From Pirellulales bacterium (GTDB lineage Bacteria > Planctomycetota > Planctomycetia > Pirellulales > UBA1268), in contig JBILWX010000003.1 of the NCBI GenBank assembly GCA_044369655.1, forward strand, positions 3,548-67,547: DNA of 64,000 nt, given 5' to 3'. The notes beneath the pieces were generated by a model. The model saw only the letters and a list, made by a program, of their open reading frames with translations, made no database searches and had not been told where the DNA came from. A program made the position numbers and the translations under genes. Shown piece after piece: positions 24,871-44,621 of the stretch; the first letter of the stretch is position 1; the number at the start of each line of letters is the position of its first letter.

Positions 24871-25905
24871 ATGCAGCGGCGTGCTTTGGTCACGGGTGTC
24901 ACAGGTCAGGACGGCTCCTACCTCGCGGAATTGTTGCTCTCGAAGGGTTACGAGGTGCATGGCCTGCGCCGTCGGTCCAGTACCTTTGGCACCCAGCGAA
25001 TCGAGCACCTGATCTTCGGTGACAATCCACAATTGCACCTGCACTACGGCGACCTCTCCGATGGCAATGGGCTGGTCCGGTTGATCCGGGAGATCCGTCC
25101 GCAGGAGGTTTACAATCTCGCTGCTCAGAGCCACGTGCGCGTGAGTTTCGACCAGCCGGCCTATACAGCCGACGTCACCGCCGTGGGCACGCTCCGCCTC
25201 CTCGAAGCCATTCGTGACGTGCAGGACGACACGGGCGAGCAGATCCGTTTCTACCAGGCCTCGAGCTCGGAAATGTACGGCAAGGTCGTGGAGACACCGC
25301 AGAAGGAGACGACACCGTTCTATCCACGGAGTCCCTACGGTGTGGCCAAGCTCTACGGCCACTGGATTACCGTCAACTACCGCGAGAGTTACGACCTCCA
25401 TGCCTCCTGCGGCATTCTCTTCAATCACGAAAGCCCGCGTCGCGGCGAGACTTTTGTGACCCGCAAGATCACCCGGGCGGCCACGCGAATCAAGCTGGGA
25501 CTGCAGGACAAGCTCTTCCTGGGAAACCTCGACGCCCAGCGGGACTGGGGTTTCGCGGGCGATTATGTCGAAGCGATGTGGCGAATGCTCCAGCAGGACA
25601 AGCCGGACGATTACGTGGTGGCCATGAACGAACTCTATTCGGTCCGCGAGTTCTGCGAGAAGACGTTCTCGCGGCTGGGTCTCGACTATCAGGATTTCGT
25701 CGAGATCGATCCGCGGTATTACCGGCCGGCCGAGGTCGACCTGCTCCTCGGCGACAGCACGAAGGCCCGCAAGCGGCTGGGCTGGAAACCTCAGACCAGC
25801 TTCGATCAGCTCGTCGAGATGATGGTCGAATCCGACCTCGAACTGGCGTCGCAGGAGAAGGCGCTCGCCAAGCGGGATGCCGGCCAGGTGCGGCGTGCCG
25901 CCTGA
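24871..25905 (+). CDS. gmd: GDP-mannose 4,6-dehydratase
   Basis: [31 protein letters not shown] and [28 protein letters not shown]-like element upstream of ATG 24871. Confidence 0.95.
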
Positions 25906-25938
25906 GGCAGCCCCGCTCTTGCCACCGCGTTGAGCCGC

Positions 25939-26799
25939 TCAGGCAGCCCTATCGTCTGCGGCGTAGACGCCGAACGCAGGGCCGTTTGGATGGTCGGGGG
26001 TCTCGAACGACACCTCGATGGTGCGGTATCCGAGATGCTGGAGTAATCCGAGGATCGAGCCGCGTGTCAGCCACAGACTCGTTGCTGCCGAGCCGCCGCA
26101 AAAGCCTCCCCAGCCAAGCGCCTCCTTGTACGACTGCTCGACGAACTGATAGCGAAAGCCATCGATCGCGGCCTCTTCGAGCCGGCCGAACTTGTGCGCG
26201 AGTGCAGGCGTTCCCCGAACGATGGGTTCGTCGAAGTAGTGTGTCCAGAGAAATACCCGAGGCGCCATTCGCGGCAAGAGCGAGAGAAACCGGGCTGGAT
26301 CCTTCATGTGATAGAGAATGCCGCTGGCGAACACCATGTCCCAACCCCCCGCATCCTCGGCCATGAATGCCATGCAGTCGCCGAGCAGAAAACGCACCTT
26401 CGTGAGGCCGAAAATCTCCTTGACACACAGACACTTGAGAAAAGAGCGGACATTGGCCTCGACGGCGAGCACCTCCGCTGCGCCGGCTTGTTCGAGCATG
26501 TAGGAATGCCCGCCCTCGAGTGGTCCGAGTTCGAGAATGCGGCGGCCACGCACACCGCCACACCGTGCATCCGCCCACGTCACCCGTGGATCTTCGAAGA
26601 GTCCGGCGTGTCCCGGGGTCGTCTTGAGGCTGCTCGCGGAAGGCAAAGCCGACGACCATTCACCTTGGAAGATGTCGAGCACCTGTTGCGGGCCCGGCCT
26701 CTCCATGCAGTAGGCATCGAGGATGCCGGCGCCGGTCGCGACGGGGCTCACGGAAGGGGAGGGGACAGCTTTACGTGCGCGGCCGGTGAGTCCAAACAC
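25939..26799 (-). CDS. class I SAM-dependent methyltransferase
   Basis: Motif I-like ILELGPLEGGHS and post-I/II blocks (..VLAVEAN.., DMVFASGILYHM). GTG start at 26799 after a GAGAGG SD; the alternative is ATG 26706. Confidence 0.65.
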   Translation of the reverse strand: MFGLTGRARKAVPSPSVSPVATGAGILDAYCMERPGPQQVLDIFQGEWSSALPSASSLKTTPGHAGLFEDPRVTWADARCGGVRGRRILELGPLEGGHSYMLEQAGAAEVLAVEANVRSFLKCLCVKEIFGLTKVRFLLGDCMAFMAEDAGGWDMVFASGILYHMKDPARFLSLLPRMAPRVFLWTHYFDEPIVRGTPALAHKFGRLEEAAIDGFRYQFVEQSYKEALGWGGFCGGSAATSLWLTRGSILGLLQHLGYRTIEVSFETPDHPNGPAFGVYAADDRAA

Positions 26800-26820
26800 G
26801 GGTGTGCCCTCTCGAGGTTT

Positions 26821-42080: not shown

Positions 42081-42358
42081 GGGCTGTCTTGCCCACCGAG
42101 GCACCGACTCGCTGTGCCGGTGATCGAGTTGCCGCCGATCGAGCCTTGGGCGTCGGCGATTCTCCGCCTCCCAAGCTGGGTGGTGACGTCTCCATACTTC
42201 GGGCCGCCTGCGCGGGCCGCCTGTCGCCCGACACGGGGCCATGACTCTGCCGTTGGCGTTCAGTTTGCGGGCTCCGACGGCCGATAACACCTTGGTGGCG
42301 GGTGTGCGGGCCGGCTGGTTGCAGTCGGTCTCATCCATGGTCTTTGGGGTGTCTATCG

Positions 42359-43537
42359 ATGTTCACAAACCGGCTTTGCCCGCAGCGGATCACCCGGCCG
42401 GCCCCCGTCGACAGGCCCCGCGTCGTGCTCGATCTCGAAAAACTCCGGCACGCCAACTGCGGGCTGGGCCGGTTCTGCCGGCACCTGGCCGAGGGCATTC
42501 TGGCGCTTGGCGAACAGTCCTTCGCCCCCGTCTTTTTTCTGCCGCAGGCGCTGCCAAAGGAAACCGTTCGGCACTTCCGTTCCGAGGGCGTCGAGCAGAT
42601 CGAGGTGAGCCCCTGGCGAAAGGAGTCGTTTGCCAGTCTCTACCGGCCGTTCCTCGCGCCTTTCCAGCGGCGGCACCGCTATGACCTCTGGCACGTCACG
42701 AACCAGACCAGCAAATATCTGCCGCTCGATCCCACCGTGCCCGTCGTGCTCACGATCCACGACCTGAACTTCCTCCACGATGACCGGCACAAGGACAGGC
42801 CCCGGGCCGTGGCCCGCAAGCTGGCCGACGTGCAGAGAAAGGTGGATCGGGCGACGGCCATCGTCACCGATTCCCGCTACGTGGCTGATGACGTCGCCGC
42901 GCACCTCCGGCTCGGCGGCAGGCCGGTGCACGTGGTCGCACCGGGCCTCTCCGCGCCACCGGCCGCGTCGACGGTGGCCCCGGCATGGGCACCCCGCGGC
43001 CGCTTTCTCCTCTCGATCGGCAACTGCCTGCCCCACAAGAATTTTCATGCGCTCTTCGGACTGATTGAAACGCTGCCCGAGTTCACGCTCGTCATCGCGG
43101 GCAAAAGGGAGACGCCGTATGGCGAGCATCTCGGCCGCGAAGTGGCCGCCCGCAACCTCGGTGACCGTGTGATCCTCACGGGGCAGGTGTCCGACGGCGA
43201 CCGGCAGTGGCTCTACGAGCACTGCGAGGCGTTCGTGTTTCCATCGCTCACCGAGGGCTTTGGATTCCCGGTGCTCGAGGCGATGCAGTGCGGCAAGCCG
43301 GTGTTCATGTCCCGCCGCACGAGCCTCCCGGAACTGGGCGGGTCGCTGGGCTTCTACTGGGACTCCTTCGGGGCCGAGCACATGGCCGCGGTGTTTCGGT
43401 CAGGCATGGCGGCGGCGGCGGCCCTGCCGACCTTCGCTGCGGCGGCCCGCGCCCGGGCAGCCGAGTTTTCCTGGGAAAATGCAGCTCGTGGCTATTTGCG
43501 GGTCTACCGCTCCGTTCTCGATCCGGTAGCGGCCTGA
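42359..43537 (+). CDS. glycosyltransferase family 4 (GT-B), island copy 2
   Basis: Collinear with 23612..24736, with the same [17 protein letters not shown] motif. ATG at 42359 aligns with the copy-1 start; the track start at 42302 is a GTG. Confidence 0.85.
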   Translation: MFTNRLCPQRITRPAPVDRPRVVLDLEKLRHANCGLGRFCRHLAEGILALGEQSFAPVFFLPQALPKETVRHFRSEGVEQIEVSPWRKESFASLYRPFLAPFQRRHRYDLWHVTNQTSKYLPLDPTVPVVLTIHDLNFLHDDRHKDRPRAVARKLADVQRKVDRATAIVTDSRYVADDVAAHLRLGGRPVHVVAPGLSAPPAASTVAPAWAPRGRFLLSIGNCLPHKNFHALFGLIETLPEFTLVIAGKRETPYGEHLGREVAARNLGDRVILTGQVSDGDRQWLYEHCEAFVFPSLTEGFGFPVLEAMQCGKPVFMSRRTSLPELGGSLGFYWDSFGAEHMAAVFRSGMAAAAALPTFAAAARARAAEFSWENAARGYLRVYRSVLDPVAA

Positions 43538-43589
43538 GCGTCGCCGGTGGGGCAGAAGCTGCTCTTTCGACCACCCCGTGGGAAGTGCT

Positions 43590-44621
43590 ATGACTCCCGA
43601 GACCATGTCCATCGCGACGCTTCCAAAGCCTGCGTCCTCCCGAACCGCCCTTATCTGCGGGATGGGGGGCCAGGACGGCAGCTACCTGGCGGCGCACCTG
43701 CTCGATCTTGGCTACACGGTGATCGGCACCAGCCGCGACGCCCAGGCCAGCCGCTTCGACGGGCTCGTGCGGCTGGGCATCCGCGACCGCGTGCAGGTGG
43801 AGTCGATGTCGCTCGTCGACTTCCGTTCCACGATGCAGGTCCTCTCCCGCACACGGCCCGACGAGGTCTACAACCTCGCCGGCCAGACCTCCGTGGGGCT
43901 CTCGTTCAACCAGCCGGTGGAAACCTTCGAGAGTATCGTCATCGGCACGGTCAACCTGCTCGAGGCGATCCGCATGCTCGGCCGGCCGATCCGGCTCTAC
44001 AACGCCGGCAGTTCCGAGATGTTCGGCAACACCGGCGACCAGCCGGCCGGCGAAACGACCGTGCTCAGACCCTGCAGCCCCTACGGCATCGCCAAGGCGA
44101 CGTCGTTCTGGCAGATCGCGCAGTACCGTCAGGCGTACAAGATCGAGGCCTGCACCGGCATCCTCTTCAACCACGAAAGTCCGTTGCGTCCCGAGCGCTT
44201 CGTCACGCAGAAGATCGTGGCGGGCGCCTGCCGCGTGGCCGCCGGCGAGCAGGACGTGCTCAGCCTGGGCGACCTCTCCGTCCGTCGCGACTGGGGCTGG
44301 GCACCGGAGTATGTCGTCGCCATGCACCGCATGCTGCAGCTCGACACGCTCGAGGATTTCGTGATCGCCACCGGCCAGACGACGAGCCTCGAGGACTTTG
44401 TCCGCGAGGTGTTCGCCAGCCTCGGCCTCGACTGGCGGAAGCACGTCGTCCGCGATCCCGCGCTCATGCGGCCGAGCGAGATCCTCTCGGGCCAGGCCGA
44501 CACATCGCACGCCACCGCACAGCTCGGCTGGACGGCGCGATACCACATGAGGGATGTCGCGCGGATGATGGTGGAGGCGCGGCTCGCGGCGCAGGCCCCG
44601 GCGATACGCCGCGCGGCGTGA
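43590..44621 (+). CDS. GDP-mannose 4,6-dehydratase family protein (divergent paralog)
   Basis: [29 protein letters not shown] and [20 protein letters not shown]. Start at ATG 43590 or 43605; the track start at 43578 is a GTG. Confidence 0.8.
   Translation: MTPETMSIATLPKPASSRTALICGMGGQDGSYLAAHLLDLGYTVIGTSRDAQASRFDGLVRLGIRDRVQVESMSLVDFRSTMQVLSRTRPDEVYNLAGQTSVGLSFNQPVETFESIVIGTVNLLEAIRMLGRPIRLYNAGSSEMFGNTGDQPAGETTVLRPCSPYGIAKATSFWQIAQYRQAYKIEACTGILFNHESPLRPERFVTQKIVAGACRVAAGEQDVLSLGDLSVRRDWGWAPEYVVAMHRMLQLDTLEDFVIATGQTTSLEDFVREVFASLGLDWRKHVVRDPALMRPSEILSGQADTSHATAQLGWTARYHMRDVARMMVEARLAAQAPAIRRAA

Follow-up and report, generated by a model that had tools for sequence, protein, structure and literature searches.

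To our knowledge, the pore of ClpX is the only well-established cytoplasmic reader of exactly a free Ala-Ala carboxy-terminus, with FtsH, ClpA and Lon acting as secondary readers of ssrA-like tails; Chlamydia, one of the organisms considered below, belongs with the planctomycetes to the Planctomycetes-Verrucomicrobia-Chlamydiae (PVC) superphylum. When five-residue tags were randomized in Escherichia coli, a terminal Ala-Ala was critical for degradation by ClpXP, Arg at the second position (-4) favored proteolysis, and a ..FKLVA tag was also functional (PMC10862746). Conservation of Ala-Ala in 67 of 71 orthologues correctly predicted that Streptomyces sigma-AntA is a ClpXP substrate (PMC7142297), the ClpX of Chlamydia degrades green fluorescent protein tagged with ..VAA and not with ..VDD (PMC9601184), and, according to PMC8138137, the level of LpxC, an envelope-glycolipid enzyme, is set through a C-terminal degron. 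Here we analyze a 64-kb stretch of planctomycete DNA (the window), in which most proteins encoded by a glycan-synthesis island at positions 24871-44621 end in Ala-Ala, and we compare these tails with the described systems.

The Ala-Ala-stop ending is present on 12 of the 17 supported protein genes of the island (gmd1, MT1, MT2, the double GT2, ST1, the aminotransferase, GT2L, RmlA, the RgpF-like gene, the ST-like gene, GT4b and gmd2), on both strands and with all four Ala codons (GCC, GCG, GCT, GCA) and all three stop codons. An earlier note on this DNA had counted 12 of 18 island proteins; its twelve tails are exactly as it listed them, and the total of supported genes is 17. The enrichment over the rest of the window that it described is also borne out, with the same two outside genes, SpoIIE/PP2C (..TPAA) and SucC (..ANAA), ending in Ala-Ala among 34 called (2/34; Fisher p = 2.7e-6). 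These outside genes were called with a purpose-written codon-usage caller, which overlooks two genes of the window, LutB and the ST-like gene, and breaks down at a guanine-plus-cytosine (GC) content under about 58%; for several other loci the gene calls of the sequence collection were used.

Against a pooled background of 24/1147 genes (about 2%; glycan-rich loci of other organisms with GC of at least 0.55), the island count has a binomial p of 4e-17. This background comprises loci around distant aminotransferase homologues in 65 named genomes from many phyla (11 of 674 genes, GC at least 0.55) and 67 loci around distant GT2 homologues (13 of 473 genes). The distant aminotransferase homologues themselves (at most 52% identity, named genomes, other phyla) end in Ala-Ala in 4 of 65 cases, and three glycan loci of Gemmatales (Fimbriiglobus) and Phycisphaerae yielded 0/20, 0/18 and 0/18. 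Because all of these backgrounds are low, the excess does not arise from GC-rich genomes, glycan clusters or planctomycetes in general.

To define the island genes, we listed open reading frames (ORFs) with their GC at each codon position, read the last eleven codons, and combined Pfam and NCBIfam identities with support from orthologues. A metagenome scan with the large GT2 glycosyltransferase returned orthologous clusters at 75-85% identity (L070-L076, GC 0.60-0.63) and at about 50% identity (L077-L082, GC 0.68-0.74). The island encodes two GDP-mannose dehydratase-type enzymes, RmlA, RmlB, a DegT aminotransferase, a hexapeptide acyltransferase, three methyltransferases (MT), two sulfotransferases (ST) and one ST-like protein, three GT2 and one GT4 glycosyltransferases (GT), and one RgpF-like protein, as follows:

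24871-25905 (+): gmd1, GDP-mannose 4,6-dehydratase, ..VRRAA (Ala-Ala codons 25897-25902, then TGA); Pfam GDP_Man_Dehyd 1.7e-145, TIGR01472 530 bits (above cutoff), identical Joint Genome Institute (JGI) gene call; Ala-Ala kept in 3/3 orthologues, with GCC, GCT and GCG.
25939-26751 (-): MT1, methyltransferase-like, ..DDRAA (Ala-Ala codons 25942-25947); weak Pfam Methyltransf_9 match, JGI call; the tail is labile, since neither of two orthologues has Ala-Ala (..DTFV, ..DTAS).
26821-27636 (-): MT2, methyltransferase, ..SQAAA (Ala-Ala codons 26824-26829, then TAG); Pfam Methyltransf_23; both orthologues end ..GRAAA.
27621-29285 (-): double-domain GT2 glycosyltransferase, ..RWRAA (Ala-Ala codons 27624-27629); two Pfam Glycos_transf_2 domains, 3.7e-50; both orthologues end ..WRAA.
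29822-30727 (+): ST1, sulfotransferase, ..RRSAA (Ala-Ala codons 30719-30724, then TAA); Pfam Sulfotransfer_2.
30693-31766 (-): GT2b glycosyltransferase, tail-less ..EPRRM; Pfam Glycos_transf_2 5e-31; orthologue ending ..SFLRR.
31802-32404 (-): hexapeptide-repeat acyltransferase, tail-less ..GRCP; Pfam Hexapep.
32445-33110 (-): MT3, methyltransferase, ..VEASA with a single terminal Ala; Pfam Methyltransf_11; orthologue ending ..EALA.
33158-34396 (-): DegT/DnrJ-type sugar aminotransferase, ..LRTAA (Ala-Ala codons 33161-33166, then TAG); Pfam DegT_DnrJ_EryC1 7e-96; orthologue endings ..ARLAA and ..PSAAA.
34434-35510 (-): RmlB, dTDP-glucose 4,6-dehydratase, tail-less ..SAVN; TIGR01181 498 bits (above cutoff); Ala-Ala in 1/6 orthologues, used as a negative control within the locus.
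35715-37616 (+): GT2L, large GT2 with an uncharacterized N-terminal region, ..RGRAA (Ala-Ala codons 37608-37613); Pfam GT2 match in the C-terminal half, start predicted; 7 of 11 distinct orthologue tails (49-85% identity) have Ala-Ala, the others ..KVA or ..RSA.
37801-38745 (+): RmlA, glucose-1-phosphate thymidylyltransferase, ..RKVAA (Ala-Ala codons 38737-38742, then TAA); Pfam NTP_transferase 1.8e-74; Ala-Ala in 5/7 orthologues, with none at 78-79% identity (L078, L079) nor in the L154 homologue.
38777-39643 (+): RgpF-like rhamnan-synthesis protein, ..RAAAA (Ala-Ala codons 39635-39640); Pfam RgpF 9e-31; Ala-Ala in 5/5 orthologues, with GCC, GCG and GCT.
39682-40941 (+): ST-like protein, ..YRRAA (Ala-Ala codons 40933-40938); no Pfam or NCBIfam match, and taken as a real gene in view of its conservation (54-70% identity) in L070 and L073-L076; Ala-Ala in 2 of 4 distinct orthologue tails.
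41169-42080 (+): ST2, sulfotransferase, ..QRAS; Pfam Sulfotransfer_2.
42302-43537 (+): GT4b glycosyltransferase, ..DPVAA (Ala-Ala codons 43529-43534); Pfam Glycos_transf_1 and Glyco_transf_4; Ala-Ala in 5/5 orthologues.
43578-44621 (+): gmd2, short-type GDP-mannose 4,6-dehydratase-like, ..IRRAA (Ala-Ala codons 44613-44618); Pfam match.

Ala-Ala is shared by 39 of 49 distinct orthologue tails in the families that carry it in the window, and is present on 6 of 21 in the families that do not, five of these six belonging to ST2; orthologues of GT4a have it in 0/6. The two sulfotransferases are paralogues (76% identity over 209 nt close to the 5' ends, repeats D1 and D5), and since 5 of 6 related ST2 copies terminate in ..RWAA, ..WRAA or ..RQAA, the ST2 ending of the window looks like a recent loss of the motif. 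Where Ala-Ala is lost, the replacements are ..KVA, ..RSA and ..WVA. Within orthologue groups, both Ala codons undergo third-base swaps among GCC, GCG, GCT and GCA, TGA, TAA and TAG replace one another as the stop, the sequences downstream of it are unrelated, and the residues from -5 upstream vary. Because Ala-Ala is kept through synonymous and stop-codon changes while the residues upstream vary, purifying selection evidently acts on the terminal peptide and not on the DNA, as the earlier note had supposed. Each tail is encoded in frame within its ORF, immediately ahead of the stop codon, and is shared by descent with orthologues, and thus is not added by transfer-messenger RNA (tmRNA).

The strongest conservation was found in gmd2, where 114 of the 120 best database homologues (75-94% identity, clustered at 90%) end in Ala-Ala, nearly all of them as R-[RQWL]-A-A. 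In 81 distinct 16-residue gmd2 tails, the entropy at positions -1 to -4 is 0.36, 0.43, 1.44 and 0.85 bits, against 2.2-3.2 bits in the hypervariable linker that precedes them. In the wider family, only 2 of 150 representatives of 50%-identity clusters (38-67% identity) have the ending. The gmd2 tail consists of 11 extra residues after ..MMVEARL, beyond the point at which the alignment with a solved GMD structure (PDB 1rpn) stops, at residue 336; in the AlphaFold2 model, the core has a predicted local confidence (pLDDT) of 95, the chain is coil from residue 340, and residues 341-347 average 55. Since it lies past the solved fold, is a low-pLDDT coil and is nearly absent from distant representatives, the gmd2 tail is, on sequence and modeled structure, a short, flexible, clade-specific appendage with a fixed four-residue end, and it should be accessible. 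The appendage that the earlier note had proposed to look for by alignment is therefore present in GMD, with solved structures and distant homologues stopping at ..MMVEARL. Similarly, Ala-Ala occurs in 37 of the 120 best database homologues of GT4b, mainly those of the orthologous subfamily, where ..RVYxxVL and a further 1-5 residues precede it, and is absent from GT4a-type paralogues (..VYAGILGR/GF); the linkers of both gmd2 and GT4b vary in length and sequence. As a control, we took SucC of planctomycetes: among 120 homologues (87-96% identity), the endings include KA, AV and QA, and Ala-Ala is present in 7/120. Since these ends drift, the ..ANAA of the window's SucC is, judging from its homologues, a chance product of an unconstrained Ala-rich end.

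To assess how widely the motif occurs, we fetched loci around gmd2 and GT4b homologues of other planctomycetes, whose enzymes differ from those of the window. At a GC of 0.55, L150 has Ala-Ala on 5 of 10 glycan-cluster genes (..NRKAA, ..IRKAA, ..RPRAA, ..RSGAA, ..LRWAA) versus 0 of 7 others; L153 has it on 4 of 9 glycan genes (..KRLAA, ..IRGAA, ..LRTAA, ..RRRAA) versus 0 of 9 housekeeping genes; and L152 has two such genes. After clustering at 80% identity, the pooled planctomycete loci contain 37 Ala-Ala-tailed and 117 other proteins. By Pfam, the tailed set includes GMD-type enzymes (5), GT2 (5), GT1/GT4 (5), DegT (3), RgpF (2), several methyltransferases, RmlA and a sulfotransferase, and its only clearly non-glycan members are SucC, the SpoIIE phosphatase and one Lnt; the untailed set holds similar glycan families and all of the housekeeping genes. 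Roughly half of the glycan-locus enzymes appear from these counts to carry the tail, and the motif is common to at least eight Pfam families, or unrelated folds, in the locus. Arg or Lys stands at -3 to -5 in 30 of the 37 non-redundant tailed proteins, compared with 57 of 117 others (p = 5e-4), and Arg occupies -3 itself in 15 of the 37 and in 62 of the 81 gmd2 tails, Leu being rare there.

These results reshape two claims of the earlier note. The tail, which it had assigned to the island as a whole, is indeed enriched there but belongs to a clade-wide [R/K]-x-A-A motif extending beyond this island, and the tagging of the whole enzyme set gives way to tagging of particular glycan families, with RmlB, GT4a, the fcl-like epimerase and the L154 homologues of RmlA and RgpF untagged. 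Collectively, comparison of these loci establishes, at the level of sequence, that [R/K]-x-A-A is a genetically encoded C-terminal short linear motif in a subset of uncultured Planctomycetia. A short and variable tail, apparently disordered, terminates in this motif, which consists of Ala-Ala-COOH preceded by Arg or Lys at -3 to -5; the motif evidently evolves under purifying selection, and members of these enzyme families outside the clade lack it.

We propose, with a probability of roughly 0.45 and by analogy with described substrates, that the tails may be built-in ssrA-like degrons, read by ClpXP or a similar AAA+ protease, that serve pathway-level turnover. The ClpX pore would recognize the free Ala-Ala carboxy-terminus of the tagged glycan enzymes, which would be short-lived, or conditionally so, and the cell could in this way remove the enzymes of the entire glycan pathway, or adjust their balance, post-translationally. 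Possible uses would be the removal of unassembled enzymes or a reset of surface-glycan synthesis at a life-cycle or environmental switch. Many Planctomycetia alternate between swimmer and sessile cells in a budding life cycle, which, speculatively, offers a plausible setting for such turnover. Because unrelated folds share the motif, a single reader of the free Ala-Ala carboxy-terminus, common to the tagged enzymes, is most likely.

We favor the degron reading because of the enrichment, the conservation of the peptide, the exposed tail of gmd2, the spread to other loci, the drifting controls and the literature on ClpXP. Compared with the C-motif-1 of ClpX, a terminal Ala-Ala, for which Val-Ala-type variants are tolerated, is found on 12 of the 17 island proteins and kept by their orthologues, and an unstructured, accessible tail is indicated for gmd2 only (PDB alignment and AlphaFold2). 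Several observations count against the degron reading. The hydrophobic residue, preferably Leu, that C-motif-1 has at -3 is replaced mostly by Arg; the E. coli screen showed a preference for Leu at -3 and did not report Arg there as favorable, and Ala-Ala alone was insufficient, with 39% of Ala-Ala-ending 5-mers weak (PMC10862746). No tmRNA was found in the window or the fetched loci (153 searched), and the window and 154 fetched loci contain neither ClpX nor ClpP genes, nor any other protease or adaptor. Constitutive instability of a dozen biosynthetic enzymes would be costly, and the homologue lists are not phylogenetically independent, their counts not equaling independent evolutionary events. 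Moreover, the RmlA and RgpF homologues of L154 are tail-less, and the tag is therefore dispensable for catalysis and its benefit dependent on context.

Were the signal one of nucleotides or of translation (termination efficiency, translational coupling, messenger RNA structure or a cassette recombination junction), the peptide would be a by-product; the ending seen most often is GCG GCC TGA, cassettes are exchanged at this variable hotspot, and one pair of gene ends, those of GT2L (37595-37619) and the RgpF-like gene (39622-39646), shares 25 nt at 76% identity (D18; ..GCGGCCTGACAT). This pair is, however, the only DNA likeness between island gene ends. With no island-wide repeat family, unrelated sequences downstream, and Ala and stop codons that differ between orthologues encoding the same residues, a repeated element at gene ends (repetitive extragenic palindrome, attC or cassette junction) is rejected, and the claim of the earlier note that the signal is not a repeated DNA element stands. 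The motif also occurs on operon-end genes and both strands, and is missing from ribosomal and housekeeping genes, highly expressed neighbors in the window and the other loci, so that we consider a nucleotide-level origin largely refuted already and very improbable. It is hard to credit, too, that the tails have no function and reflect GC-rich composition, chance or the hitch-hiking of a shared, horizontally transferred gene pool. Although the genome is Ala-rich with 68% GC, the island, possibly transferred, has a lower GC than its flanks, and the tail is gained and lost in a few families (MT1, ST2, RmlA), the background at comparable or greater GC is about 2%, a locus of 55% GC still has the motif and the Ala-rich end of SucC drifts in the same clade; nor can neutrality account for the low entropy of the last four residues in 81 distinct gmd2 tails, where the adjoining linker is hypervariable.

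The remaining explanations grant the peptide a function other than degradation. C-terminal tails are generally known to regulate some enzymes of the short-chain dehydrogenase/reductase (SDR) fold and some glycosyltransferases, and each tail could pack into its own enzyme or oligomer, for example in closing an active site, the likeness between tails being convergent; this is a long shot, given that at least eight unrelated folds have the same four-residue end, that linker length and sequence are unconserved, that the AlphaFold2 gmd2 tail is a low-confidence coil and not docked, and that homologues outside the clade work without a tail. It is possible, if doubtful, that the tails are docking or targeting tags, by which a non-proteolytic reader (a scaffold, a membrane-complex subunit or a compartment receptor) gathers glycan enzymes via [R/K]-x-A-A-COOH. 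One peptide-conserved motif on flexible tails of many unrelated folds of one pathway would suit such a reader, as would the conserved basic residues beside Ala-Ala, which ssrA tags do not typically have and which point to binding of greater specificity, and stable biosynthetic enzymes would be cheaper than degraded ones. However, in the loci examined no candidate reader gene co-occurs with the motif, the only untailed conserved neighbors being the fcl-like epimerase and the DUF900 hydrolase, four residues are very short for a specific site, an exposed Ala-Ala-COOH must still evade ClpXP, and we know of no bacterial precedent for such a docking tag. Bolder, and in our estimate unlikely, is the suggestion that a pathway-level address tag evolved in a clade of Planctomycetia, with a dedicated reader that assembles or localizes the enzymes of the variable surface-glycan locus as a bacterial analogue of peroxisomal targeting signal 1 (PTS1), possibly coupled to proteolysis of undocked enzymes.

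Two neighboring genes were considered as a possible reader. The AAA ATPase at 54717-56060 (-) has 447 residues and belongs to the classic clade (AAA + AAA_lid_3), with an uncharacterized N-terminal region of about 230 residues; we rejected it, as it is not conserved beside the related loci L152 and L153 and scores far below the cutoffs of PAN, Cdc48 and FtsH models. The DUF900 alpha/beta-hydrolase, which adjoins gmd or the fcl-like epimerase in every related locus, gave no NCBIfam match and no informative PDB match and was likewise rejected. It is located at:

Window 49095-50108 (-): DUF900 hydrolase.
L150 11007-12125: DUF900 hydrolase.
L152 11034-12053: DUF900 hydrolase.
L153 13284-14225: DUF900 hydrolase.
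L154 1-980: DUF900 hydrolase.

The window has a GC of 60-73%, and the glycan island at 24.8-44.6 kb is lower, at 60-66%; in the intervals 24001-36000 and 40001-42000, the island is mostly at 60-64% versus 66-73% in the flanks, and island genes score lower under a codon model trained on the window. The lower GC of the island may fit horizontal acquisition or a different codon usage. A protein identical to gmd1 is encoded on the JGI metagenome contig Ga0453106_0000003 (339,555 bp). In the flanks are a DUF1559 protein with an N-terminal methylation motif (46917-47762) and a YTV-repeat protein (13093-14739), both families being hallmarks of Planctomycetota, and near homologues of gmd2, GT4b and SucC are labeled in databases as metagenome-assembled genomes of Planctomycetota, Planctomycetia, Pirellulales or Planctomycetaceae. 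The DNA is therefore that of an uncultured planctomycete, putatively from freshwater judging by how related contigs are named.

The glycan genes form a variable hotspot between two kept blocks (window 21205-54701; L152, L153, L154), with lutABC/T2SSE/cvpA/sucCD on one side and the fcl-like epimerase, DUF900 hydrolase and ffh-rpsP-trmD-rplS-UPF0102 on the other. The gap between the blocks is about 24 kb in the window (23.6-47.8 kb), where it holds the glycan genes and others including lnt and a DUF1559 gene, versus about 9 kb in L154. The latter, a relative whose SucC is 90% identical, has a compact rhamnose-type locus at the same chromosomal site, with Ala-Ala only on its GT4; at 17968-19047, beside lutC, it also has an insertion of an AbiEii-like toxin, a CopG-like antitoxin and a small ORF, without counterpart in the window. 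Outside the glycan enzymes, the GAF-SpoIIE/PP2C phosphatase at 4999-6990 (-) terminates in ..GTPAA, and a regulator with such an ending would be a classic candidate ClpXP substrate. Lnt, a non-glycan envelope enzyme, sometimes bears the motif, with ..AARAA in L082 (31-1611, -) versus ..RRRTA in the window (44623-46212, -). Three large, confidently coding genes of the window have no Pfam match, at 864-4976 (+), 9527-11428 (+) and 11452-12909 (-), with 1370, 633 and 485 residues. Long spurious ORFs or extensions, antisense to or upstream of real genes and typical of high-GC DNA, occur at 26194-27669 (+), 15918-19220 (+) and 35118-35714 (+); they mask MT1, MT2 and LutB, and inflate the large GT2 to 832 residues if the longest ORF is called.

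Ala-Ala degrons on single regulators were already known; new here is a conserved terminal motif on a large share of one biosynthetic pathway, spanning unrelated folds and added to enzymes whose homologues elsewhere are without it. Full-text searches found no description of planctomycete degrons or of a pathway-wide Ala-Ala tail. Should the tails be degrons, surface-glycan synthesis would be under post-translational control as an entire pathway, and this in a phylum where cell biology and proteolysis have scarcely been studied; should they instead serve docking or targeting, they would represent a new kind of bacterial sorting code. In either case, the motif offers a simple marker by which co-regulated glycan genes can be found in the genomes of planctomycetes.

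Very short terminal peptides on many enzymes of a pathway, recognized by one receptor, are otherwise found where PTS1 tripeptides route whole pathways into peroxisomes or glycosomes and where terminal peptides load encapsulins or microcompartments. The planctomycete tails resemble these in being short C-terminal peptides on many pathway enzymes (at least eight Pfam families), and differ in that the known signals are S-K-L, amphipathic helices or G-S-L motifs and are eukaryotic or tied to shells. The consensus here is [R/K]-x-A-A, not the (S/A/C)-(K/R/H)-(L/M) of PTS1, and the last four residues are conserved after a hypervariable linker, unlike the amphipathic helix of 10-20 residues or the G-S-L of encapsulin and microcompartment cargo; no shell-protein family is among the Pfam matches of the window.

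Closer likenesses are found among degrons. The tmRNA-added ssrA tag also ends in a di-alanine read by ClpX, but is added in translation to stalled chains, whereas the planctomycete tail is encoded in the ORF and inherited. As listed in PMC8138137, the RqcH/NEMF alanine tails of Bacillus subtilis are likewise C-terminal alanines that act as a ClpXP degron (Lytvynenko et al., 2019); these are untemplated and placed on stalled nascent chains, being neither encoded nor pathway-specific. The degron through which FtsH controls E. coli LpxC, as given in the same paper (Fuhrer et al., 2006), is a non-polar C-terminal tail (ending ..AVLA) on an envelope-glycolipid enzyme, but it acts on one committed-step enzyme, is a longer signal with another consensus, and is not common to a pathway.

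The closest counterparts are the native ssrA-like degrons of Streptomyces sigma-AntA and Caulobacter CtrA, which share with the planctomycete tails an encoded Ala-Ala-COOH, an accessible tail and conservation among orthologues. Degradation of sigma-AntA is abolished by Asp-Asp (PMC7142297), and the CtrA degron appears as ..EQVNAA in PMC8138137. The functional claim for the planctomycete tails rests entirely on analogy, and at -3 these mostly have Arg rather than Leu or Val. Taken together, the comparison suggests a native ssrA-like C-terminal motif that would be deployed across a biosynthetic pathway and a clade, with a minority chance of a new sorting or assembly code; where sigma-AntA and CtrA are single regulators, the motif described here marks a dozen enzymes of one biosynthetic pathway.

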